Source: an uncultured Bacteroidales bacterium (GTDB taxonomy: Bacteria; Bacteroidota; Bacteroidia; Bacteroidales; VadinHA17). Taken from it: a DNA stretch of 64,000 nucleotides. This document shows positions 63 through 44,564 of this stretch, piece after piece (positions within the stretch are counted from its first letter, which is position 1; every line of letters starts with the position of its first letter). Where the stretch lies: NCBI GenBank assembly GCA_963734885.1, contig CAVTIJ010000002.1, positions 259,977-323,976 of the forward strand, given 5' to 3'. Below the pieces are notes generated by a model. It was not told the DNA's origin. It worked only from the letters and a program-made list of their open reading frames with translations, and searched no databases. A program made the translations under genes and the position numbers.

Positions 63-100
63 ATACCTTTGTGCCGTTAAGCCTCTGCGCCTTTATTCCT
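63..100. repeat. partial copy of the CTTTGTG/CACAAAG-type intergenic repeat
   Basis: ACCTTTGTGCCGTTAAGCCTCTGCGCCTTTATTCC has 8-9-nt periodic units. It resembles 27012-27050. Confidence 0.3.
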
Positions 101-1003: not shown

Positions 1004-1042
1004 TTCTCTGTGCTCCTCCTGCTCTCTGTGTCAGTTCTTAAT
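1004..1042. repeat. half copy of the CTCTGTG-type intergenic repeat
   Basis: TTCTCTGTGCTCCTCCTGCTCTCTGTGTCAGTTCTTAAT. The last 19 nt match 4923-4941 with one difference. Confidence 0.6.
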
Positions 1043-2085: not shown

Positions 2086-4884
2086 ATGAAAAAAATCAAT
2101 TGCTGTTACCTTTTCTTAATCATTCTGGTATTTTCATGCACAACCGAAAAAAAAGAAGCGCCTCTATCCATTCCATGGGAAAAATATACTTTGCCTAATG
2201 GTTTGACTGTTGTCCTCAATGAAGACAAATCCGATCCGATTGCTATTCAGGCAGTTTATTACCATGTTGGCTCCAGCCGTGAGGTACCGGGGAAAACCGG
2301 ATTTGCGCATCTTTTTGAACATATGATGTTTCAGAAATCCGAGAACGTGAAGGAAGATCAGTTCTTTAAAAACATACAGGGCGCTGGCGGAACTCTGAAT
2401 GGCAGCACCAATCAGGACAGAACCAATTACTTTGAAGTAATTCCGAATAACTCTCTTGAAATGGCAATCTGGATGGAATCCGACAGAATGGGTTACCTCG
2501 AGAATACTGTTACACGTTCAGCGCTTACCAACCAGCAAAACGTAGTGCAGAATGAAAAACGTGAAAGTGTGGATAATGCTGCTTACGGATTTGAAGATTA
2601 TCTTATCCTCAAAACCCTTTACCCGGTAGGTCATCCATACAGTTGGGATGTCATTGGGGATATGACTGATCTGACAAATGCAACTGTTGAGGACGTGAAA
2701 GCTTTCCACAAAAAATATTATTCTCCTAACAATGCTACACTTGTAATTTCCGGTAATTTCAACAAAGAGCAGGTAAAAGGATGGATAGAAAAATATTATG
2801 GCGAGATCCCGCAGGGAGAAGCTGTAGAAAAAAGATCCGCAATGCCTGTTAAGTTAGCTTCAACCGTAAAACTTTATCATGAGGATAATTTTGCAAAAAC
2901 TCCTCAACTCACTTTGGTGTTTCCATCAGTTGAGCGATATTCAAAGGACTCATATGCCCTTAACTTTCTGGGGCAGCTTCTTTCCGGAACAAAAAAATCA
3001 CCCTTGTATACTGTTCTTGTTAAAGATAAAAAACTTACATCGCGTGTTATGGCACGCAATGGCTCACAGGAACTTGCAGGAAGTTTCACAATTACAATAA
3101 ACGCAAACCCCGGGGTTAATCTCACAGATGTTGAAAAAGCAATTTTTGAAGGGTTCGCAAAATTTGAAAAAGATGGTTTTACAAATGAAGACCTCACTAT
3201 TATTAAGGCAGGATATGAAAGCCGCTTTTACAATTCTTTTGCCAGCATACAAGGAAAAGCATTTCAGCTTGCAGAGTACACAATGAATACCGGTGATCCG
3301 GGCTATTATCAGAAAGATCTCGCTTCTATTCAGGCTGTAAGTATGGAAGATGTCAAAGCTGCTTATGAAAAATATATTAAAGGAAAGAATTTCGTAGAGA
3401 CAAGCTTCGTCCCGAAAGGAATGGTAAATCTTATTGCTGAAGGTTCTATTAATGCTGGTATTGTTGAAGAAGATGTAACAAAAGCTGCTGAAGTCAAAAC
3501 GGAATCAGCTGTTGAAGAACCTGTAGTAAAGACAGTCACAAAAATTGACCGTTCAGTCATGCCTGCAGTAAGTGCAGATCCAACCGTGACAATCCCGGCT
3601 ATCTGGAAGGGGTCACTTTCAAACGGAATGAAAATATGGGGTATCAGCCAGAATGAATTGCCGCTTATCCAGTACTCGATTGTCATCAGTGGAGGACATA
3701 TGCTCGATAATGTTGCTAAAGCCGGTGTTGCTAACCTGGTTGCATCAATGATGAATGAAGGAACAAAGAACAAAACTCCTGAACAGCTTGAAGAAGCAAT
3801 AGGATTACTTGGCGCTACAATCAGGGTCAATTCCGGGAATGAAGATATTTCAATCAGTGTGAGCACAATGGCAAAGAATTTTGAAAAGAGTCTGGCTCTT
3901 GTCCAGGAGATTCTGCTTGAACCAAGATGGGATACAGTGCAGTTTCCATTAGCAAAAAGCCGTATAATAAACGGTTTAAAAAGAGATGCTGCCAGTCCTG
4001 ATTATCTTGCATCAAAAACACTCAATAAACTTATGTTTGGTGATAATATTCTGTCCATAAACGCAACAGGAACAGAGGAATCGGTCAGTTCAATTACAAT
4101 TGACGACCTGAAAGAGTATTACAGCAAGTACATTTCACCATCAATCAGCCGTTTCATTATAGCCGGTGATGCAGATTCAACAAGGATCAAAGCCGCTCTT
4201 GAAAATCTTAATACGAAATGGCAGGCAAAAGAAGTGGTTATTCCTGAAATTAACGTACCAGCAGCTCCTGAGAAATCACAGATATATTTTGTCGATGTTC
4301 CTGGTGCAAAACAATCTGTCATAGCCATTGGGGCTCCATCATTATCCAGACCGGATCCTGATTATTTTGCTGCAACAGTTGCGAACTATAAGCTTGGAGG
4401 ATCATTCAATGGTATATTCAATCTGATTCTAAGAGAAGAAAAAGGATTTACCTATGGCGCAAGATCAAATTTCAGCGGAGCCAGGAATTACGGAACATTC
4501 ATCGCAACATCCAGGGTAAGGACAAACTCAACAGTTGAATCTGTTACGATCTTCAAAAACGAGATGGAGAAATATTCCAAGACCATTCCGCAGGAGTATG
4601 TCGACTTTACAAAATCATCGCTTATCAAAGGAAATGCTCTGCGGTTTGAAACTCTTGGCAATCTTCTTGGTATGCTTAATACCATGTCGGCTTATAACCT
4701 GCCTGTTAACTATATCAAACAGGAAGAAGCAATTGTTAACGGGCTTACGGTTGAAAAGGATCTTGAACTTGCTAAAAAGTATATTAATCCGGCCAGAATG
4801 TACTATGTTGTTGTGGGTGATGCCAAAACGCAGATTAAAGATCTTGAGAAGGTTGGATTAGGGAAACCGGTATTGGTGAATTAA
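2086..4884 (+). CDS. M16 (pitrilysin/insulinase) family zinc peptidase, double-length
   Basis: 932 aa. Inverted zinc motif HLFEHMMF (HxxEH). The length fits two tandem M16 halves. Lipoprotein-like signal ILVFSC. Confidence 0.85.
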   Translation: MKKINCCYLFLIILVFSCTTEKKEAPLSIPWEKYTLPNGLTVVLNEDKSDPIAIQAVYYHVGSSREVPGKTGFAHLFEHMMFQKSENVKEDQFFKNIQGAGGTLNGSTNQDRTNYFEVIPNNSLEMAIWMESDRMGYLENTVTRSALTNQQNVVQNEKRESVDNAAYGFEDYLILKTLYPVGHPYSWDVIGDMTDLTNATVEDVKAFHKKYYSPNNATLVISGNFNKEQVKGWIEKYYGEIPQGEAVEKRSAMPVKLASTVKLYHEDNFAKTPQLTLVFPSVERYSKDSYALNFLGQLLSGTKKSPLYTVLVKDKKLTSRVMARNGSQELAGSFTITINANPGVNLTDVEKAIFEGFAKFEKDGFTNEDLTIIKAGYESRFYNSFASIQGKAFQLAEYTMNTGDPGYYQKDLASIQAVSMEDVKAAYEKYIKGKNFVETSFVPKGMVNLIAEGSINAGIVEEDVTKAAEVKTESAVEEPVVKTVTKIDRSVMPAVSADPTVTIPAIWKGSLSNGMKIWGISQNELPLIQYSIVISGGHMLDNVAKAGVANLVASMMNEGTKNKTPEQLEEAIGLLGATIRVNSGNEDISISVSTMAKNFEKSLALVQEILLEPRWDTVQFPLAKSRIINGLKRDAASPDYLASKTLNKLMFGDNILSINATGTEESVSSITIDDLKEYYSKYISPSISRFIIAGDADSTRIKAALENLNTKWQAKEVVIPEINVPAAPEKSQIYFVDVPGAKQSVIAIGAPSLSRPDPDYFAATVANYKLGGSFNGIFNLILREEKGFTYGARSNFSGARNYGTFIATSRVRTNSTVESVTIFKNEMEKYSKTIPQEYVDFTKSSLIKGNALRFETLGNLLGMLNTMSAYNLPVNYIKQEEAIVNGLTVEKDLELAKKYINPARMYYVVVGDAKTQIKDLEKVGLGKPVLVN

Positions 4885-4891
4885 ATATTTT

Positions 4892-4992
4892 ACCTCTGTG
4901 CAACTCTGTGCTCCTCTGTGTTCTCTGTGTAAGTTCTTAATAACTTTTTAGTTACACAGAGGAACACAGAGAAGACACAAAGGGCCACAGAG
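4892..4992. repeat. long imperfect hairpin of CTCTGTG/CACAGAG units (intergenic repeat family)
   Basis: Arms 4893-4932 and 4952-4992 are about 90% reverse-complementary around a 19-nt loop GTTCTTAATAACTTTTTAG, followed by TTTTATTTT. Confidence 0.8.
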
Positions 4993-5043
4993 TTTTATTT
5001 TGCCTCTATCTCATTTGCTGTTTTTAATAAAGATTATTTATTC

Positions 5044-5051
5044 TAAATTTG
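5044..5051 (+). promoter_or_regulatory. -7 promoter box (TAnnTTTG) upstream of tRNA-Leu
   Basis: TAAATTTG lies 64 nt upstream of the tRNA 5' end. Confidence 0.3.
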
Positions 5052-5114
5052 CAGCACTTGAAAAAGTCCACCGACTGCATGATGCAAGACAGCAGACTGC
5101 ACGACAAAATATTT

Positions 5115-5198
5115 GCCCGGATGGTGGAATGGTAGACACGCAGGACTTAAAATCCTGTGACCATTACGGTTGTGCGGGTTCAAGTCCCGCTCCGGGTA
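5115..5198 (+). tRNA. tRNA-Leu (anticodon TAA), type II with long variable arm
   Basis: 84 nt. Acceptor GCCCGGA/TCCGGGT, anticodon stem CAGGA/TCCTG, loop CTTAAAA, T-arm GCGGG-TTCAAGT-CCCGC. Confidence 0.9.
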
Positions 5199-5311
5199 CC
5201 CAGAGGCACAAGAGGTCAAAACTGACCTCTTGTTTCATTTTATGACATTCTGAAAACCCCACTAATTCAAAGGATGAGATGTACAGTAATTTTCAGGGAG
5301 AGGGTTGCAAC
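5194..5311 (+). repeat. direct repeat copy 1 (tRNA-Leu 3' edge plus downstream 113 nt)
   Basis: About 85% identical to 8113-8229. The first 28 nt, GGGTACCCAGAGGCACAAGAGGTCAAAA, are identical in both copies. Confidence 0.9.
5208..5240 (+). terminator. intrinsic terminator after tRNA-Leu
   Basis: 11-bp stem ACAAGAGGTCA / TGACCTCTTGT with loop AAAC, followed by TTCATTTTA. Confidence 0.65.
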
Positions 5312-8112: not shown

Positions 8113-8229
8113 GGGTACCCAGAGGCACAAGAGGTCAAAATCGACCTCTTGTTTTATTTTAGGACATTCTGAAACAGTCACAAATTCAAAAGATGAGAGA
8201 CATCTTAAATTTGAAGGAGAGGGTGCAAT
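8113..8229 (+). repeat. direct repeat copy 2 (homolog of the tRNA-Leu 3' edge and downstream region)
   Basis: See 5194-5311. It retains the terminator hairpin (ACAAGAGGTC / GACCTCTTGT, 8127-8152). Confidence 0.9.
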
Positions 8230-8999: not shown

Positions 9000-11396
9000 A
9001 TGCCCTATCCATTACAAAGATTAATCTTTGCTTTTTTCATTCTAATAAATGCTTCTCAGCATGGCGTTTGTCAGGATAGTCTTCTGATGCGTCAGCTGAA
9101 GCAAAGTAGATATCTACGGACAGTGATGAAGCCAGACTCCTCAGGGATGGGATTTTCACGCTGGAAAAAGAAAGAAATAATCCATTCGACCGCCTTGCAC
9201 CTCATAACTCAGTTTAATGATTTAAAAGTCAAGGGCCCCGGTAGTCTGAAAATTGCAAAAGACATTACGGTTTCAGGAGAGGGAAGTATACTGCTCGAAT
9301 CACCCACATCTCTTGCTGTAAAAAATCCAACAAACAGGTCGTATGCAACTTCCGAGATGATAAGACCGATCGATAATGAAAATTTGGAGAGCTTTAACCG
9401 GATCAGCGTTTGGGTTAAATTAGATGCACCCGGATTTTATTCCGCATTTGTCGGGGTAACGCTTTACAACCAGGGAAAGCATATTACTCCCACGCCAGGA
9501 CGTTTTGAAGGGCAGCATTTTATTACTGTATATCCCGGTCAATGGCAACACATTATATGGGAAATACCCGACCTGTATCGCGATAAGGTTACAGGTATTT
9601 CTGTAAGTATAATGCTTGGCGGTTCCCCGGAAGGAGCAAGTGATCATTTTAAGCTTTATATTGATAAACTGAGTATTGATGAGGTTGTCCCTGAATTATC
9701 CCGTGGATTTGATCTCAGGAAGAATTCAATCTCATACTGTCACAGCGGATATATTATTGGTGCAAGGAAACAGGCATTAGTGCAGAATGTTGACGACCCC
9801 CGCTTTCAGGTACTGAATGAAAACGGGAAAGTGGCTTTTGATGGTGTGGCGAAGAAACTTGAAAACGGATTCATGCTGATGGATTTCAGCTCGCTGGATG
9901 TTTCCGGTTTCTATATCCTTAAAACCGGTGCTGGTACTTCCGGTAAGTTTCCGATAGGTGAAAATGCCTATCTGTCATTAGCCTGGAATACCCTGAATTT
10001 CTTCTATGCCGAGCGTTGCGGTTATGATCAGCCGGGGATTCACCAGGTATGCCACAAGGATGTATTTTGTGTCCATCCCGATGGAAGACGCCTCTTAGTA
10101 AACGGCGGCTGGCACGATGCGGCTGATCTTACTCAAGGTACCGGCAATACTGCACGGGGAATTATATCAATGCTCAGATTGGCTAAAACAGTCGAGGCTT
10201 CTCATCCCGATCTTAATACCAGGCTTCTCGAAGAAGCCCGCTGGGGCCTCAACTGGTTGCTCGGTACACGTTTTGGCGATGGATACCGTGACGGCGGACT
10301 CATTATTGGGATCTGGACAGATAATATTATTGGTACAAAAGATGATATGGATACAAAAGCGACAAATGATCCTTTTGACAATTTTATTTCGTCGGTTGCA
10401 GCGGCGCTCGCAGTACCATATTATAGCTCAATTGATCCGGTCTTCTCAGATTGGTGCAGGAAGGCAGCTATCGAAGATTATGACTTTGCCGTAGAAAACA
10501 TGGCTCGGGTATTAAATCAAAAAAACGAAACAGAACTCTATTCAACGGCCACTGTTGCTTCAATGCATCTCTATCAGCTCACCCATGAGCAACGATATCT
10601 CGGAAATGCAGTCAGCTTTGCAGAGATAGTTATGGATTGTCAGCAACTCGAAAGACGGAAGGAATGGAGCATACCACTTCATGGATTCTTCTACGAATCA
10701 CGGGATAAAAAATGCCCCCTGGCATTCTTTCACCGCAGCAATGAAGAAATGATGATCGAGGGTTTATACATGTTGCTCAAAAATGCACCAGCACATCCCG
10801 AAGCGTCAAAATGGATGGCTTCATGCAAAGCTTATGCCGATTATCTGCACGATATTTCCAAAACCATTGAACCGTATGAAATTTTACCTGCAGCAGTTTA
10901 TCAGCTTAACAATTCGGATTTTAGCGGCATCTACCATGAGGGAGAAAAGATCGGTCTTCCTTCGATGGAGGAGTTTAACGCCCAGGTGAAAAATGGCATT
11001 TACCTTGGCAACGATTTTTACCTGCGCCGTTTTCCTGTAGCTTATCAGTTCCGTGGTTTTCATGCGGTACTTATGGGAAAAGCAAAGGCAGCATTTGTGC
11101 TTTCCGAATTATTGAATGATAAGGAATTAAAAGAAATTGCCACCCGTCAGCTCGAATATATTGTAGGATATAATCCCTTTGCCATGAGCACGATATATGG
11201 CGAGGGATATGATTATCCGATCCTTTACAGCGGGTATCTTGGTGATGTAGTCGGGGCAGTTCCTGTAGGGATTGAGACCTTTGAAAATGAAGATAAGCCT
11301 TACTTCCCGATGCAGGTAAACGCAACATACAAAGAAGTCTGGACCCACACTACAGCTTCAGTGATGTGGCTGCTATCCTATCTGGTAGCACATTGA
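9000..11396 (+). CDS. glycoside hydrolase family 9-like protein, exported
   Basis: 798 aa. AYLSLAWNTLNFFYAERCG, GGWHDAADL (compare GH9 GGWYDAGDH), YIVGYNPFAMSTIYGEGYDYP and C-terminal YKEVW resemble GH9 signature blocks. Divergent. Confidence 0.55.
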   Translation: MPYPLQRLIFAFFILINASQHGVCQDSLLMRQLKQSRYLRTVMKPDSSGMGFSRWKKKEIIHSTALHLITQFNDLKVKGPGSLKIAKDITVSGEGSILLESPTSLAVKNPTNRSYATSEMIRPIDNENLESFNRISVWVKLDAPGFYSAFVGVTLYNQGKHITPTPGRFEGQHFITVYPGQWQHIIWEIPDLYRDKVTGISVSIMLGGSPEGASDHFKLYIDKLSIDEVVPELSRGFDLRKNSISYCHSGYIIGARKQALVQNVDDPRFQVLNENGKVAFDGVAKKLENGFMLMDFSSLDVSGFYILKTGAGTSGKFPIGENAYLSLAWNTLNFFYAERCGYDQPGIHQVCHKDVFCVHPDGRRLLVNGGWHDAADLTQGTGNTARGIISMLRLAKTVEASHPDLNTRLLEEARWGLNWLLGTRFGDGYRDGGLIIGIWTDNIIGTKDDMDTKATNDPFDNFISSVAAALAVPYYSSIDPVFSDWCRKAAIEDYDFAVENMARVLNQKNETELYSTATVASMHLYQLTHEQRYLGNAVSFAEIVMDCQQLERRKEWSIPLHGFFYESRDKKCPLAFFHRSNEEMMIEGLYMLLKNAPAHPEASKWMASCKAYADYLHDISKTIEPYEILPAAVYQLNNSDFSGIYHEGEKIGLPSMEEFNAQVKNGIYLGNDFYLRRFPVAYQFRGFHAVLMGKAKAAFVLSELLNDKELKEIATRQLEYIVGYNPFAMSTIYGEGYDYPILYSGYLGDVVGAVPVGIETFENEDKPYFPMQVNATYKEVWTHTTASVMWLLSYLVAH

Positions 11397-12672: not shown

Positions 12673-13953
12673 ATGAAACAAAGCAAGATCTATATTCCGG
12701 TGATAGTCTTATTACTATGCATATCGAATATCTATGCACAGGACTGGCCACAATATTTTGGGCCAAACAGAAATGGAGTGTCAGCTCAAAAAGGCATTTT
12801 GCGCTCCTGGCCTCAGCAGGGTCCGGAAGTAGTCTGGACGGCTAATGTAGGCATTGGCTATGGCGGACCGGTTGTAAAGGACGGTAAAGTATATTTACTC
12901 GACAGGGATGACAAGGTTGGTGATAAGCTGAGGTGTTTCGACTTTTCCAATGGAAAGGAGCTTTGGAGTTTTGGCTATGATGCTCCTGGATCAGTTATGT
13001 TTCCCGGATCCCGAAGTGTTCCAACACTCGATGGTAATCTGATTTTTACATGTGGCCCGTACGGAAACCTGTATTGTATAGACATCAATACACACAAACC
13101 AGTTTGGAATAAGAATGTCTGGACTGACTTCGGCGGCGGTGAAATTCCGAAATGGGCAATTACACAGTGTCCGATTGTTTATGGTGATTTGCTGATTCTT
13201 GCATCACAGACGCCGCAGGCAGGTGTCGTTGCATATGAAAAACTCACTGGCAAAGTAAGATGGAAAACAGCGCCTCTTGGCCCGGTCGGATATGTTAGTC
13301 CTGCCATCGTGAAAGTTGGCGGAGCCAGCCATGTTGTTATGATAACAGCTGCGGAGCGTGGTGGTTATGGCGAGAGCGGCAGTGGTGGTAAAGTTGTAGG
13401 AATTGACCCGATTTCAGGGAAAATCCTGTGGGAATATAAAAACTGGCAATGCGGAATTCCGGTCCCGGGTCCTATTGACGCCGGTGAAGGCAGAATATTG
13501 ATTACCGGAGGGTATAATGCCGGTGCTGCAATGATAAAGATTGAGAAGAAAGCTGATGGCAGCTACGGCGTTACAGAACTTTATAAAAACAAAGATTTCG
13601 GCGCACATACCCAGCAACCGGTTCTGTATAATGGCAATTTTTATGGTCAATATTCAACAAATGAAAGGAAAGACGGTCTGGTCTGCATGAGCATGGACGG
13701 CCAGATAAAATGGAAAACGGGAAGATCACCATTATTTGATAAAGGTGGTATAATCATTGCCGATGGTTTATTTCTTTGCACTGATGGCAGTAGCAAATTG
13801 TATCTTATTGAACCCAATCCAGAATCATTTAAGCCGGTTGCAACAGCAGATCTGCTCAAAGGAAATCAAAACTGGGCGCCCCTGGCTCTCCTCGATGGAA
13901 AGCTGCTGATTCGTGACCAAAATAGGTTAATGTGTGTAAAGGTTACTAAGTGA
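12673..13953 (+). CDS. PQQ-like / BamB-like beta-propeller repeat protein, exported
   Basis: 426 aa with a signal peptide. Repeated blades of type G.VY..D....L.C.D..TGK..W. Confidence 0.7.
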   Translation: MKQSKIYIPVIVLLLCISNIYAQDWPQYFGPNRNGVSAQKGILRSWPQQGPEVVWTANVGIGYGGPVVKDGKVYLLDRDDKVGDKLRCFDFSNGKELWSFGYDAPGSVMFPGSRSVPTLDGNLIFTCGPYGNLYCIDINTHKPVWNKNVWTDFGGGEIPKWAITQCPIVYGDLLILASQTPQAGVVAYEKLTGKVRWKTAPLGPVGYVSPAIVKVGGASHVVMITAAERGGYGESGSGGKVVGIDPISGKILWEYKNWQCGIPVPGPIDAGEGRILITGGYNAGAAMIKIEKKADGSYGVTELYKNKDFGAHTQQPVLYNGNFYGQYSTNERKDGLVCMSMDGQIKWKTGRSPLFDKGGIIIADGLFLCTDGSSKLYLIEPNPESFKPVATADLLKGNQNWAPLALLDGKLLIRDQNRLMCVKVTK

Positions 13954-26013: not shown

Positions 26014-26841
26014 CTATTGTTTTACCAGCTCCACCCTTCTGTTTTTGGCCTTACCTTCTTCAGTATCATTCGAAGCTACCGGTACCAGTGAAGCAACACC
26101 ATAAGATTTGAGACGCGTTGCTGTGATACCATATTTGGTTACAAGAGCATTCACTACAGCATCCGACCGGTCTTTCGAAAGCTTCATATTCGATTCAATA
26201 GTGCCAACATTATCAGTATGTCCGACAACATAGAGATTAAGAGACTTATTGTTTGTGAGAAGTCTGGATATCTGGATAAGAGCTGAGTCAGATTCTGGCT
26301 TTATTTCAGCCTTTCCACTGTCGAAGAAAATACCATAAAGTGCAACATGTCCGGTACTGTTAATATCATTACCCATCGCCTCGGCATTTGCTGTAATCTC
26401 CTGCTTCATGATCTCTCTTTCAATAATATTCAACCGATACATGTTATTATATGATCTGACCTCAATCCAGGTTTCCTTTCCATCTTTTTGAACAACAATT
26501 GTGGACGTCTTATTAAAATTATCATCAAAGACAACTTTACCGCCAATTTTTTTGAGAGCATCCTGAATGTTTCTGCGTATTTTTAACTCACCGGGTTCGG
26601 ATGAGCCAGTTTTCAAATTGAATTGATAATAATATTTATGACCCTCAATAACAACAGGTTTCTTGTCTGATCCATTAAATCTGTAACTATCGAAATCCAT
26701 ATTTTTACATTCTAAAATAAAGAAGTCAGGCATTCTTGAAATCAAAGGATGGTCTTTGCAGTTCTTTGCATCCTGCTGTTGAGCTGTTGAAAAACTTGTA
26801 AATAAGAAGAACAAACTGATAATAGTGATTAAATTTTTCAT
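26014..26841 (-). CDS. OmpA-family protein, paralog of 1132-1962
   Basis: The ORF extends to 26898. ATG at 26841 gives the signal peptide MKNLITIISLFFLFTSFSTAQ. C-terminal YVVGHTDNVG...NRRVELVKQ. Confidence 0.85.
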   Translation of the reverse strand: MKNLITIISLFFLFTSFSTAQQQDAKNCKDHPLISRMPDFFILECKNMDFDSYRFNGSDKKPVVIEGHKYYYQFNLKTGSSEPGELKIRRNIQDALKKIGGKVVFDDNFNKTSTIVVQKDGKETWIEVRSYNNMYRLNIIEREIMKQEITANAEAMGNDINSTGHVALYGIFFDSGKAEIKPESDSALIQISRLLTNNKSLNLYVVGHTDNVGTIESNMKLSKDRSDAVVNALVTKYGITATRLKSYGVASLVPVASNDTEEGKAKNRRVELVKQ

Positions 26842-27011
26842 ATTGATTTCATTTAAATGATTCAAAGAATCGGTCAGGTAAACTTTGCGTAATATCAAAT
26901 CTACAAAATTTTTCCTGAGATTTATCTATTATGGCATTGAATTTCTCCAGAACAACTGCGGGCGCAGCTCGTCGCTTAGGGTTATAGCACCATAGTTTGG
27001 TCGTACTATAT

Positions 27012-27050
27012 TTTCTTTGTGCCCTTTATGTCTTCTTTGTGTCAGTTTAC
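27012..27050. repeat. half copy of the CTTTGTG-type intergenic repeat
   Basis: The core GCCCTTTATGTCTTCTTTGTGT matches the reverse complement of 4965-4986 at 20 of 22 positions. Confidence 0.6.
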
Positions 27051-27101
27051 TGCTAAAGTTGAACAATCTTTTCTAATTTTAACTTTTAAAATTTAACAGG
27101 C

Positions 27102-29317: not shown

Positions 29318-29328
29318 AAAATAATCCA

Positions 29329-29372
29329 TTAACCACAAAGGAACACGAAGGAAAATACAAAGTAACACAAAT
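29329..29372. repeat. half copy of the CACAAAGG-type intergenic repeat
   Basis: TTAACCACAAAGGAACACGAAGGAAAATACAAAGTAACACAAAT shares its first 30 or so nt with 32281-32335. Confidence 0.6.
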
Positions 29373-29398
29373 GGAAAAATATCACCTAAACTAAAAAT

Positions 29399-30163: not shown

Positions 30164-30167
30164 ATGG

Positions 30168-30206
30168 ATATATAAGTTACTTATATATATAAGCATCTTA
30201 TATATA
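30168..30206. repeat. two overlapping AT-rich palindromes (TATATAAG / CTTATATA)
   Basis: ATATATAAGT-T-ACTTATATAT (30168-30188) and TATATATAAG-CAT-CTTATATATA (30184-30206), each with perfect 10-bp arms. Confidence 0.85.
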
Positions 30207-30255
30207 CAATATCTTATATATTATTAATATATTATATACTAATTCTTTAATGATC

Positions 30256-30303
30256 AATACTTCTTTAATATAATACTTCTTTAATATAATACTTTTTGAA
30301 TAT
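30256..30303 (+). repeat. 16-bp tandem repeat, 3 copies
   Basis: AATACTTCTTTAATAT occurs twice perfectly, then AATACTTTTTGAATAT. CTTATATA also recurs at 30180, 30197 and 30213 (16-17-bp period). Confidence 0.85.
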
Positions 30304-30379
30304 CCAATTTTTAAAGCTTCTGACGCCAACGTCTTACTCTATCTTTCTGTCAACATTTTACCCGGTCTTTTAAAAAAAT

Positions 30380-32280: not shown

Positions 32281-32378
32281 TTTACCACAAAGGAACACAA
32301 AGGACACACAAAGGAACACAAAGGAAAAATACAAGCTTAGGTCATAATCCTTCGTGACCCTTTTGTGTGTCCTTAGCG
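32281..32378. repeat. full-length CACAAAGG-type intergenic repeat (hairpin-forming)
   Basis: Four tandem units ACCACAAAGG AACACAAAGG ACACACAAAGG AACACAAAGG, then the partly complementary arm CCTTTTGTGTGTCCTT. It fills a convergent intergenic gap. Confidence 0.8.
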
Positions 32379-42817: not shown

Positions 42818-43067
42818 TTAATCACAAAGATAATTTTTTCTCTCGCAAAGAAGAAATGACCTAAAGTAATTATGCTTGTCATTTTTCCCCATTTACCCCC
42901 TTCCATTTTCCCCAAGGAGGAAAGGTTGCGTCCACTCCTTCCCCCTTGGGGGAAAGGTTGGGAAGGGGTAAAGGAACTATGGAGAACATACTGTAACTTT
43001 GTGTCTTAGTGGTAGCAAGAAAGAATTGAGCTCGCGGTTGCAATCCTTGTCGCAAGAAAGAATTCAC
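42818..43067. repeat. composite structured intergenic element (CACAAAG/GCAAGAAAG arms plus GC-rich hairpin)
   Basis: TTAATCACAAAG at 42818. Three GCAA(A)GAA(A)GAA copies (42845, 43014, 43052). Hairpin 42892-42972 has outer stem TTTACCCC(C)TTCC / GGAAGGGGTAAA and inner stem CCCCAAGG / CCTTGGGG. GGAAAGGTTG occurs twice. Confidence 0.7.
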
Positions 43068-43170: not shown

Positions 43171-44475
43171 GTGGTTAAACCAATGGTTGAGTACCTGCTT
43201 AAAAACAATATAACTCTGATGATCGCCTCACCAATGAAGGATCGGGCCGACGAAATGATCAACGGGAATCCGCTTGGCTTTTCAGTCGACTGGTCAATGG
43301 ATGACCCGCGGATGCTTGATCAGCTTATCAAAGAATATGATATCACGGTCAGCCTTTTGCCATATAAATATCATTCCGCAGTTGCCAGGATTTGCCTGAT
43401 TCATGGAAAACCGCTCGTTACAACATCATATATACAACAGGAGATGATGGAGCTGAACCATGCAGCTGAAAAAGCAGGTTTGCTTTTCCTTAATGAGGTT
43501 GGTCTCGATCCGGGAATAGATCACATGACAGCCATGAGAATAATCGACCATATCCATGGTAAAGGTGGCAAAGTGGAGGAGTTCTATTCACTATGCGGGG
43601 CGCTTCCTGCACCCGAAGCCGCAGACAATCCCTTGAAATATAAGTTCAGCTGGAGTCCGAAAGGCGTTATACTTGCCAGCAGGAACAGTGCACTATATTT
43701 TAAAAAAGGGGAAAAAGTGCATATTGATACATCTGATATCTTCAAAGATACATTCATCTATAATTTTCCGGGAACAGGAGATCTGGAGGTTTATCCAAAC
43801 AGAGATTCCGTGAGCTATATCGACATCTATGGTATCCCGGAAACCATGACGATGTACCGTGGTACATTCAGGTATAAAGGCTGGTGTGAAACTCTCGATG
43901 TGATGAAAAGTCTTGGCATGCTCGATGATTCTGTAAAGAATTACCAGAATATGAGTTATGCAGAGTTTTTAGCAGATAGAGCAGGATTAGGGGATAAAGA
44001 TCTTAAACCCAATCTGGCTAAATTACTGGGCAGATCAGATAAAACAGCAACAGTAATCCAATCTCTTGATTTTCTGGGGTTTTTCAGCGATGAAAAGCTT
44101 CAGTATCATGAGACATCACCTTTTGAAATAACATCCGACAGAATGATAAAAAAGATGTTTCTGTCTGCCAATGAACGCGACATGGTTGTTTTGCAACATA
44201 TAGTTCTGGCATCTTATCCTGACGGCAACAGGGAAGTCATAAAATCATCCATGCTTGATTACGGATCTCCGGCTACGAATACATCGATTGCGCGAACTGT
44301 TGCTTTGCCTGCAGCAATATGTGTAAGGATGATTCTTGAAAACAGAATAAAAGCAAAGGGTGTCCGCAGACCTGTAATTCCTGAAATATACAATCCCGTC
44401 CTGGATGAATTAAAAACCCTGGGAATCGAAATGAAGGAAGAATACGGATTATCTGAAAGTGAAATGATAAAATAG
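43171..44475 (+). CDS. saccharopine dehydrogenase family protein (5' end out of frame with its ATG)
   Basis: 434 aa from GTG. The same frame continues upstream as RRVLILGAGLVV (Rossmann GxGxxG) to the TGA at 43138. The ATG at 43137 is in a different frame. See finding. Confidence 0.85.
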   Translation: MVKPMVEYLLKNNITLMIASPMKDRADEMINGNPLGFSVDWSMDDPRMLDQLIKEYDITVSLLPYKYHSAVARICLIHGKPLVTTSYIQQEMMELNHAAEKAGLLFLNEVGLDPGIDHMTAMRIIDHIHGKGGKVEEFYSLCGALPAPEAADNPLKYKFSWSPKGVILASRNSALYFKKGEKVHIDTSDIFKDTFIYNFPGTGDLEVYPNRDSVSYIDIYGIPETMTMYRGTFRYKGWCETLDVMKSLGMLDDSVKNYQNMSYAEFLADRAGLGDKDLKPNLAKLLGRSDKTATVIQSLDFLGFFSDEKLQYHETSPFEITSDRMIKKMFLSANERDMVVLQHIVLASYPDGNREVIKSSMLDYGSPATNTSIARTVALPAAICVRMILENRIKAKGVRRPVIPEIYNPVLDELKTLGIEMKEEYGLSESEMIK

Positions 44476-44481
44476 ATTTTT

Positions 44482-44564
44482 TTAACCACAAAGCACACTA
44501 AGCTAGGGGATAAACCATCTGTGTGAATTTTGTGTAAACCCCTTTGTAACCTTTGTGGTTAAAG
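44482..44564. repeat. full-length CACAAAG-type intergenic repeat with perfect 12-bp terminal inverted repeats
   Basis: TTAACCACAAAG (44483-44494) and CTTTGTGGTTAA (44551-44562). Internal TTTGTG units. It fills a 99-bp convergent gap. Confidence 0.8.

Follow-up and report, generated by a model that had tools for sequence, protein, structure and literature searches.

REP, BIME and REPIN elements are short, non-coding, extragenic sequences that occur in many copies, favor gene 3′ ends, lack target duplications and are found as singlets or as inverted doublets, either head-to-head or tail-to-tail. Their amplification is lineage-specific, they are mobilized by RAYT Y1 transposases, and termination, mRNA stabilization and insulation have been proposed as their roles. 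The REP unit itself is an imperfect palindrome of 20–40 nt, with a 5′ GT[AG]G (or CGTC) tag at the foot of its stem.

MITEs, about 100 nt long, also have inverted arms and no coding capacity, and occupy sites that vary among relatives. For intergenic heptamer arrays that lie near start codons and are spread patchily across phyla, the nearest literature parallel is provided by the TAACTGA repeats of Beggiatoaceae, Cyanobacteria and Bacteroidetes (MacGregor 2015, PMC4679880). Together with the cyanobacterial STRR repeats, these are heptamer arrays in spacers, often a few to tens of nt from start codons, with a patchy spread across phyla, no evident transfer mechanism and no functional pattern among the neighboring genes (PMC4679880). 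Their heptamers follow one another without gaps (period of 7) and are almost always direct repeats, with neither a terminal head nor inverted doublets.

We analyzed a 64-kb window (the whole 64,000-nt stretch presented above), in which an initial annotation had noticed a dispersed intergenic repeat recalling REP/BIME or MITE-like elements. With moderate confidence, we interpret this repeat as a REP-like, lineage-amplified extragenic family, whose copy at 4893 would act as an intrinsic terminator/insulator. The building block is an oriented array, made of a head (TTAAC, TTTAC or TTAC) and two to four heptamers of the type CAC[A/G/T][A/G]AG with 2–4 free nt between them. Such arrays exist singly or as inverted doublets, and 4893–4992 is a doublet with its heads facing inward.

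Results and Discussion

The hairpin at 4893–4992 and its setting

Between the gene for an M16 (pitrilysin-type) peptidase (2086–4884) and that for tRNA-Leu(taa) (5114–5202) lies a hairpin of about 100 nt, in which four CTCTGTG units stand opposite four CACARAG units and a T-run follows (Table 1). Its presence, already proposed in the initial annotation, was confirmed by an inverted-repeat finder and by RNA folding. The former returned perfect arms at 4923–4932 and 4952–4961 (100% complementary, 19 nt apart), nested in longer imperfect arms. Upon folding of 4886–5000, the plus strand was paired over 4894–4992 (–46.9 kcal/mol, z = –6.58, 0 of 200 shuffles equal), while the minus strand gave –54.4 kcal/mol (z = –9.13, no shuffle equal). 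Downstream of the hairpin, TTTG at 5014–5017 and TAAATTTG at 5044–5051 are presumably promoter-like boxes for tRNA-Leu.

Table 1. Repeat family members in the window and parts of the 4893–4992 hairpin
Feature	Position	Strand	Description
Doubtful member	63..100	+	One strict CTTTGTG unit (also reads TACCTTTG), then degenerate units
Half copy	1006..1042	+	CTCTGTG, degenerate unit, CTCTGTG, then TCAGTTCTTAAT; no hairpin
Hairpin, left arm	4893..4932	+	CTCTGTG ×4 at 4894, 4904, 4914, 4923; spacing 9–10 nt
Left arm, inner end	4893..4932	+	Inward-facing head GTGTAAGTT
Loop/core GTTCTTAATAACTTTTTAG	4933..4951	+	Portion AGTTCTTAAT found again at 1033–1042
Hairpin, right arm	4952..4992	+	Head TTA, then CACAGAG 4955, CACAGAG 4965, CACAAAG 4976, CACAGAG 4986
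T-run TTTTATTTT	4993..5001	+	Adjoins stem; kept in L001, L002, L031
Single array	27013..27047	+	CTTTGTG / CTTTATG / CTTTGTG, head TCAGTT
Single array	29329..29376	+	Head TTAAC, CACAAAG, CACGAAG, TACAAAG, CACAAAT; begins 12 nt past stop codon
Hairpin without T-run	32281..32374	+	Head TTTAC, four CACAAAGG units 32286–32323, partial reverse arm 32349–32374
Two-unit array	42997..43016	–	Reads GCTAC, then CACTAAG A CACAAAG
Outward-facing-head pair	44482..44562	+	TTAAC, CACAAAG..CACTAAG ... CTTTGTA..CTTTGTG, GTTAA; convergent genes flank

The surroundings of the tRNA gene are repetitive in other ways. Between the promoter-like boxes and the tRNA, 5064–5105 is taken up by about 4 imperfect tandem copies of an 8-nt, GACTGCAA-like unit, which have a counterpart in another assembly, L002, at 12987–13021; an array of GACTGCAG/GACTGCAA resembling them is found at 4398–4428 of L031, another Bacteroidales assembly. 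Directly 3′ of tRNA-Leu is a terminator-like hairpin (5208–5233) that is nearly identical to one at 8127–8152; both read ACAAGAGGTCAAAA[CT/TC]GACCTCTTGT and are followed by T-rich sequence, and the tRNA-Leu of L002 is trailed by the same hairpin (~13120–13150). These hairpins are a second small dispersed family. In a third assembly (L001, 13040–13230), the intact tRNA-Leu is preceded by two partial copies of its 5′ end (GCCCGGATGGTGGAATTCCCG...), both interrupted by an inserted hairpin.

Copies within the window

The motif CACARAG occurs 27 times in the window, on both strands, and 23 of these occurrences fall in the intergenic 9.7% (binomial p = 6e-20, a figure that overstates independence because the matches are clustered). 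When an array was defined as at least two CAC[AGT][AG]AG units at 8–12 nt spacing, with block shuffles as the control, we counted 6 arrays, as compared to 0.05 in the shuffles. All 6 are intergenic: they comprise both arms of the hairpin and the arrays at 29334, 32286, 42997 and 44487. Degenerate arrays at 1006 and 27015 are two further members.

According to the ORF map, the sites listed in the initial annotation are indeed all strictly intergenic. Most of that list holds, but it was padded, as 63–100 is weak and 42818–43067 is mostly unrelated sequence, namely a C/G-run palindrome plus two isolated units, with 42997–43016 as its sole two-unit array. The three strings said to be shared between copies are all present, except that the partner of 27021–27042 is the reverse complement of 4964–4985, one position off from the interval first given. 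The copies had also been described as having hairpin potential, and this applies to the doublets alone. Compared with shuffles, 32281–32374, with convergent genes on either side, folds with z of –5.0 / –7.6 and 44482–44562 is marginal (z about –2). The single arms of 1006–1042, 27013–27047 and 29329–29376 fold at chance, with z of 0.22 (1000–1050), –0.23 (27005–27060) and 0.23 (29320–29398), respectively.

When the window was searched with a covariance model of the hairpin plus its relatives, a check that the initial annotation had suggested, the hairpin itself scored 151.7 bits and the runner-up 17 bits, so that no further full copy was found. The other copies are therefore related to the hairpin only via the units and short strings, and their divergence offers no support for copy-and-paste in the recent past of this genome.

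The Bacteroidetes –7 promoter box has the consensus TAnnTTTG, and the family could in principle consist mostly of such TAnnTTTG/TTTG boxes plus chance low-complexity matches. Three sites, all upstream of genes, are what we take to be fits to this box: 63 (TACCTTTG), 42823 when reverse-complemented (TATCTTTG) and 42997 (TAACTTTG, where the box would serve the gene at 43171). However, the CTCTGTG units contain no TTTG, arrays are located after stop codons and between convergent genes, their number far exceeds that in the shuffles, and the same arrays occur in phyla with ordinary sigma-70 promoters (see below). As an account of the family, this is highly improbable; it is largely refuted for the arrays and survives for isolated single units alone.

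Two of the single arrays lie beside genes of the OmpA family. The half copy at 1006–1042, kept in L001 at 9602–9650, is located between tRNA-Gly (–) and an OmpA-family gene (+; 1132–1962) that is missing in L001 and L002, and the array at 27013–27047 borders a segment, with the OmpA-family gene 26014–26898, that is missing from the syntenic relative L203. These two arrays therefore border gene-content differences.

Other intergenic elements are interspersed with the family. The one at 42880–42960 is made of C-run/G-run palindromes, e.g., ACCCCCCAACCCCCCATTTGGGGGGCT ... AGTCCCCCATTTGGGGGATTTAGGGGG, and recurs downstream of a 628-aa gene in ten relatives (L136, L138, L144, L153, L155, L158, L161, L169, L170 and L193), where it occupies the junction that in the window bears a heptamer array. 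The spacer at 30164–30379 (216 nt, AT-rich), which contains repeats of the CTTATATATA type and AATACTTCTTTAATAT units in tandem, measures only 51 nt in L203.

Conservation of the 4893 copy

The hairpin, its loop and the T-run are found at the orthologous peptidase/tRNA-Leu spacer in both L001 and L002. Between the window and the more distant L002, none of the 56 unit positions differ and only 2 of 25 differ in the loop region (the columns between the fourth and fifth units, which include 4933–4951), as compared to 12 of 23 in the inter-unit spacers. Judging by this alignment, the units and the loop are evidently under purifying selection and the spacers are under none. RNAalifold retained 33 pairs, nearly all of them invariant, so there is little covariation evidence for or against the structure.

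The peptidase gene is itself unusually similar across these genomes. At the protein level it is 93% identical to that of L001 and 90% to that of L002 (four-fold sites 59% and 45% identical, respectively), whereas neighboring and other syntenic genes, at 52–89% amino acid identity, are well below it. For instance, BLASTP gives 52% identity for a flanking protein of 219 aa (57% in a MAFFT alignment), saccharopine dehydrogenase is 77% identical, and four-fold sites elsewhere are ~36% identical, that is, saturated. We could thus discard the idea that L001 is a close congener, given neighboring proteins at 52–77% and the M16 gene alone at 93%. The similarity of the M16 gene suggests either strong constraint or an exchange of the segment, and part of the hairpin conservation could stem from a recent exchange of this kind. 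The contrast between units and spacers makes it unlikely that exchange is the whole explanation.

Like intrinsic (Rho-independent) terminators, the 4893 copy has a stem immediately followed by a U-run, lies 3′ of a long gene and is kept in orthologues. Unlike the usual terminators, it has a stem of ~40 bp with internal loops, a loop of 15–19 nt whose sequence is conserved, and repeated heptamers. The RNA would form an interrupted stem of ~40 bp, followed by UUUUAUUUU, and this would be a factor-independent terminator ending the M16 peptidase transcript upstream of a separately promoted tRNA-Leu. This reading fits because a strong stem and a U-run occur in the sense orientation after a long gene, because promoter-like boxes for the tRNA lie downstream and because the copy is conserved across saturated divergence. 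Most likely, then, to judge from these features, the 4893 copy stops transcription ahead of tRNA-Leu. The terminator features are found at 4893–5001 only, and not at 32281–32374 or 44482–44562; as the initial annotation had remarked, no other copy in the window has a 3′ T-run.

Dispersal and turnover among relatives

A copy ~80% identical over 110 nt, loop and T-run included (118.7 bits), is present in L031, with a YtfJ-like gene on one side, an unrelated ORF on the other and no tRNA nearby. Another copy, which is degenerate, follows after 500 nt. The window and the L001/L002 loci have 0.9 arrays per 10 kb vs 0.04 per 10 kb in family-level relatives, where arrays are thus ~20-fold rarer. The latter set (555 kb, dereplicated, and picked via a protein rather than via the repeat) contains 2 arrays, against 0.8 in shuffles. 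That the copies form a dispersed family beyond low complexity, as originally proposed, is thus borne out by the excess of arrays over shuffles, by the at least 20-fold enrichment over family-level relatives and by the full-length copy in a different gene context of another genome.

Comparison of syntenic junctions points to turnover. The array at 29329 sits in an 81-nt spacer, while the corresponding spacer of L203 is 28 nt long and array-free (the MutS proteins are 95% identical). The two convergent genes that flank the 32281 array across a 128-nt spacer overlap in L203, with zero spacer, and in other relatives this junction has nothing, 8-nt-period arrays or C6/G6 palindromes. The L001/L205 genome has a CTCTGTG element of its own in the spacer between MutS and saccharopine dehydrogenase, and in L205 the orthologous spacer of 44482–44562 contains a different hairpin. 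The family is therefore gained and lost as REP/BIME elements are. Elements are thus gained, lost or replaced at fixed gene junctions, with the tRNA-Leu copy retained.

Alternatively, rather than being copies of one another, arrays might arise independently in spacers, by replication slippage from a short seed as simple-sequence repeats do, and be retained wherever a hairpin or filler does no harm or is of use. The units are short, their copy number and spacers are variable, and the empty L203 spacer has ATTCACAAAAAA at the place of the window's TTAACCACAAAGG...; moreover, other relatives fill the same junction with other tandem arrays of 7–8 nt period, and long simple-sequence repeats of 5–11 nt are described as sporadic among bacteria (Mrazek 2007, as summarized in PMC4679880). 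Slippage leaves unexplained, however, the non-unit strings that copies have in common (the core AGTTCTTAAT and GCCCTTTRTGTCTTCTYTGTGT), the copy found in another context in L031 and, as detailed below, a head conserved across phyla and the placement of that head toward genes. We consider an origin of this kind unlikely.

Arrays with the same plan in other phyla

When one genome per species was scanned for three CACARAG units 2–5 nt apart, we obtained at least 120 matches, where chance would give, by our own estimate for the whole collection at uniform base composition, a few tens. The matches listed include Planctomycetota, Acidobacteriota, Chloroflexota, several proteobacterial classes and Nostoc, as well as Cloacimonadota, WOR-3, Ignavibacteria, Kiritimatiellae and Bacteroidota. 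Based on crude ORF calls, 124 of the 144 arrays among these matches are intergenic, and many form inverted pairs. The spacers, among the matches listed, are codirectional in 65 cases, convergent in 25 and divergent in 11. The array period given by TRF is 10–11 in the window and 9 in most other phyla, which rules out a contiguous heptamer simple-sequence repeat.

Before the first unit there is a conserved head that the initial annotation had not noted, T-T-[ACT]-[AG]-C, with C at –1 in 99 and a purine at –2 in 129 of the 146 cases among the matches listed, where the opposite array end has no such conservation. The same head precedes sister arrays found at the same loci, whose units are CACGGAT, CGCAGAG, CGCGAAG, CACCAAG or CACAGAT. 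Inspected by eye, the purine-rich strand of the sequences printed for the listed matches is nearly T-free. In single arrays of the listed set, the head is closer than the tail to a gene end in 37 of 44 cases (p = 3e-6), the median distances being 37.5 nt for the head vs 172 nt for the tail. Many of these "singles" are in fact long-range pairs around a whole spacer, in the order stop codon, head, array, 100–300 nt, array, head, start codon.

T-rich sequence follows the 3′ arm in 26 of the 79 pairs with outward-facing heads (A-rich in 2 of 79) and in 2 of the 22 with inward-facing heads, again among the matches listed. Termination cannot be the role of the whole family, because no other copy in the window has a T-run and, of the cross-phylum pairs listed, only about a third of those with outward-facing heads and 2 of 22 of those with inward-facing heads have one. 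The hairpin model scored doublets with inward-facing heads in Pyrinomonadaceae at 54–60 bits, and these doublets and the window hairpin have a common outer spacer, CTCTGTG-CAAC-CTCTGTG.

In IMG/VR, arrays are common and their orientation is uniform within contigs (79 of 90 vs 62 expected). Three of these contigs (L254, L249 and L274) bear very dense arrays, e.g., 16 in 9.6 kb for L254, all in a single orientation. In the dense contigs, CACGGAT-type arrays alternate with CACAGAG-type ones, each with a separate head, and in L274 an array plus GAGAGAAAATCTTTTAAA makes up a larger repeating unit. In locus L095 (1400–1690), the arms of a pair with outward-facing heads enclose a small Cys-rich (zinc-ribbon-like) ORF.

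Going by the aligned arrays, the architecture with its terminal head is evidently not confined to Bacteroidota. More tentatively, and with a confidence that leans toward doubt, we propose an unnamed extragenic class that may be pan-bacterial: a TT-N-R-C head plus C-R-C-N-R-A-G heptamers at 9–11 nt, with the head against gene starts or stops and with inverted arrays bracketing spacers. The repeats of the window would then be a single local case of this class.

A pure structure would permit compensatory changes, and yet the heptamers are invariant and common to several phyla, which hints at sequence-specific recognition. Taken with the conserved loop and with a head that recurs across phyla, this invariance suggests that some candidate factor recognizes the arrays. 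The arrays could even be primarily clustered binding sites, on DNA or RNA, for a putative nucleoid, termination/antitermination or translation factor, the hairpin being secondary. Such a role would agree with heptamers that stay invariant while spacers drift, with the recurrence of the heptamer class and head across many phyla, and with locus L094, whose arms carry different, non-pairing units behind heads that are a perfect inverted repeat of 10 nt. It would also agree with the lack of strand bias relative to transcription in single arrays (16 vs 14 among the matches listed), and an analogous proposal was made for the TAACTGA repeats (PMC4679880). On the other hand, no candidate protein was identified, spacers often co-vary where arms pair, giving near-perfect stems (e.g., in Pyrinomonadaceae), and the period differs between the window and most phyla, so there is no constant helical phasing. 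Nor is the head a DnaA box: TT-N-R-C-CACA can be aligned with clustered TTATNCACA 9-mers, but T at box position 4 occurs in only 14 of 146 heads among the matches listed, and the sister arrays also lack the final A. Binding sites as the primary nature of the arrays therefore seem to us quite improbable. Readings of the head as parS or as –35/–10 elements were rejected as well, since the position counts fit neither.

Comparison with described families

In behavior, the REP/BIME/REPIN group is the closest, and "REP-like" is fair as an analogy and not as membership. The array family is likewise short, non-coding, extragenic, multi-copy and lineage-amplified, favors gene 3′ ends, shows no target duplication, and comes as singlets and inverted doublets in both arrangements. 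To this extent the REP/BIME parallel drawn initially stands, gain and loss included. What does not carry over is the unit: instead of a palindrome, single arrays are made of non-palindromic spaced heptamers behind a TTARC head that runs into CAC, and instead of the GT[AG]G tag we found T-T-[ACT]-[AG]-C followed by CAC (n = 146, matches listed). The heptamers do not appear in the published REP table of Y1/RAYT subclasses, which covers the "atypical" Bacteroidetes subclass 2.6 and class 3, from Planctomycetes and Acidobacteria (PMC6006769). No RAYT (Y1) gene was seen among the ORFs of the window, 25 listed families included, or 116 neighbor ORFs; the former are housekeeping genes and both sets are ordinary genes.

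The family resembles MITEs in length, inverted arms, lack of coding capacity and variable sites, and differs from them in having no target-site duplication and no matching autonomous insertion sequence, in its internally repetitive arms and in the frequency of single arms. At 4893–4992 there is no target-site duplication, and the flanks of doublets prolong the inverted repeat and are not direct repeats of each other. The statement that flanking target duplications and a transposase are absent was therefore accurate, and membership among the MITEs has to be rejected, as we found neither a target duplication nor a related transposase. A link to a gene family (GxxExxY/four-helix-bundle proteins or transposases) was also rejected: the 116 head-side ORFs contain 199 Pfam families, none in more than 3 of them.

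Most family members, unlike intrinsic terminators, have no U-run. With the STRR/TAACTGA repeats the family shares heptamer arrays in spacers close to start codons, the patchy cross-phylum spread with no evident transfer mechanism and neighbor genes without functional pattern (PMC4679880); it differs in its period of 9–11, in its free spacers and in inverted arrays that often pair.

At the gathering threshold, an Rfam search returned two tRNAs alone in the window and nothing in 18 array-bearing loci, in agreement with the earlier opinion that this is not a named family. An E-value search of 4850–5120 gave only sub-threshold matches to generic hairpins (miRNA precursors). A PCR primer for B. fragilis, in which AACTCTGTGTTCTCTGTGGTG occurs, was the sole match of full-text searches with six exact two-unit strings, and BLAST of the consensus doublet vs plasmids and phages gave no match, probably owing to the low-complexity filter. 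The array class is apparently undescribed, absence from Rfam and from the searchable literature being no proof of this.

Conclusions

As a REP-like extragenic family, the arrays are non-coding and confined to spacers, prefer the places where a gene ends, come and go between relatives and would reach new sites by copying. Their spread may occur by copy-and-paste through a putative trans-acting factor. At the density of the window, with 6 arrays in 64 kb, a genome of ~5 Mb would have several hundred copies. For the window itself, the outcome is a well-supported candidate annotation of the M16 peptidase/tRNA-Leu spacer as a terminator/insulator.

If the class does span Bacteroidota, Acidobacteriota, Planctomycetota, Chloroflexota, Proteobacteria and Cyanobacteria, this would imply one common trans-acting factor, horizontally spread, which could be a protein that binds the arrays or an enzyme that mobilizes them. 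A factor that recognizes or installs the arrays is what the conservation of the head and its regular placement toward the gene point to, and finding it could expose a new mechanism of mobilization or of gene-boundary definition. Were the arrays one coherent class, they would represent an abundant unannotated spacer feature of many environmental bacteria, bearing on operon boundaries, terminator prediction, assembly and the reading of intergenic conservation.
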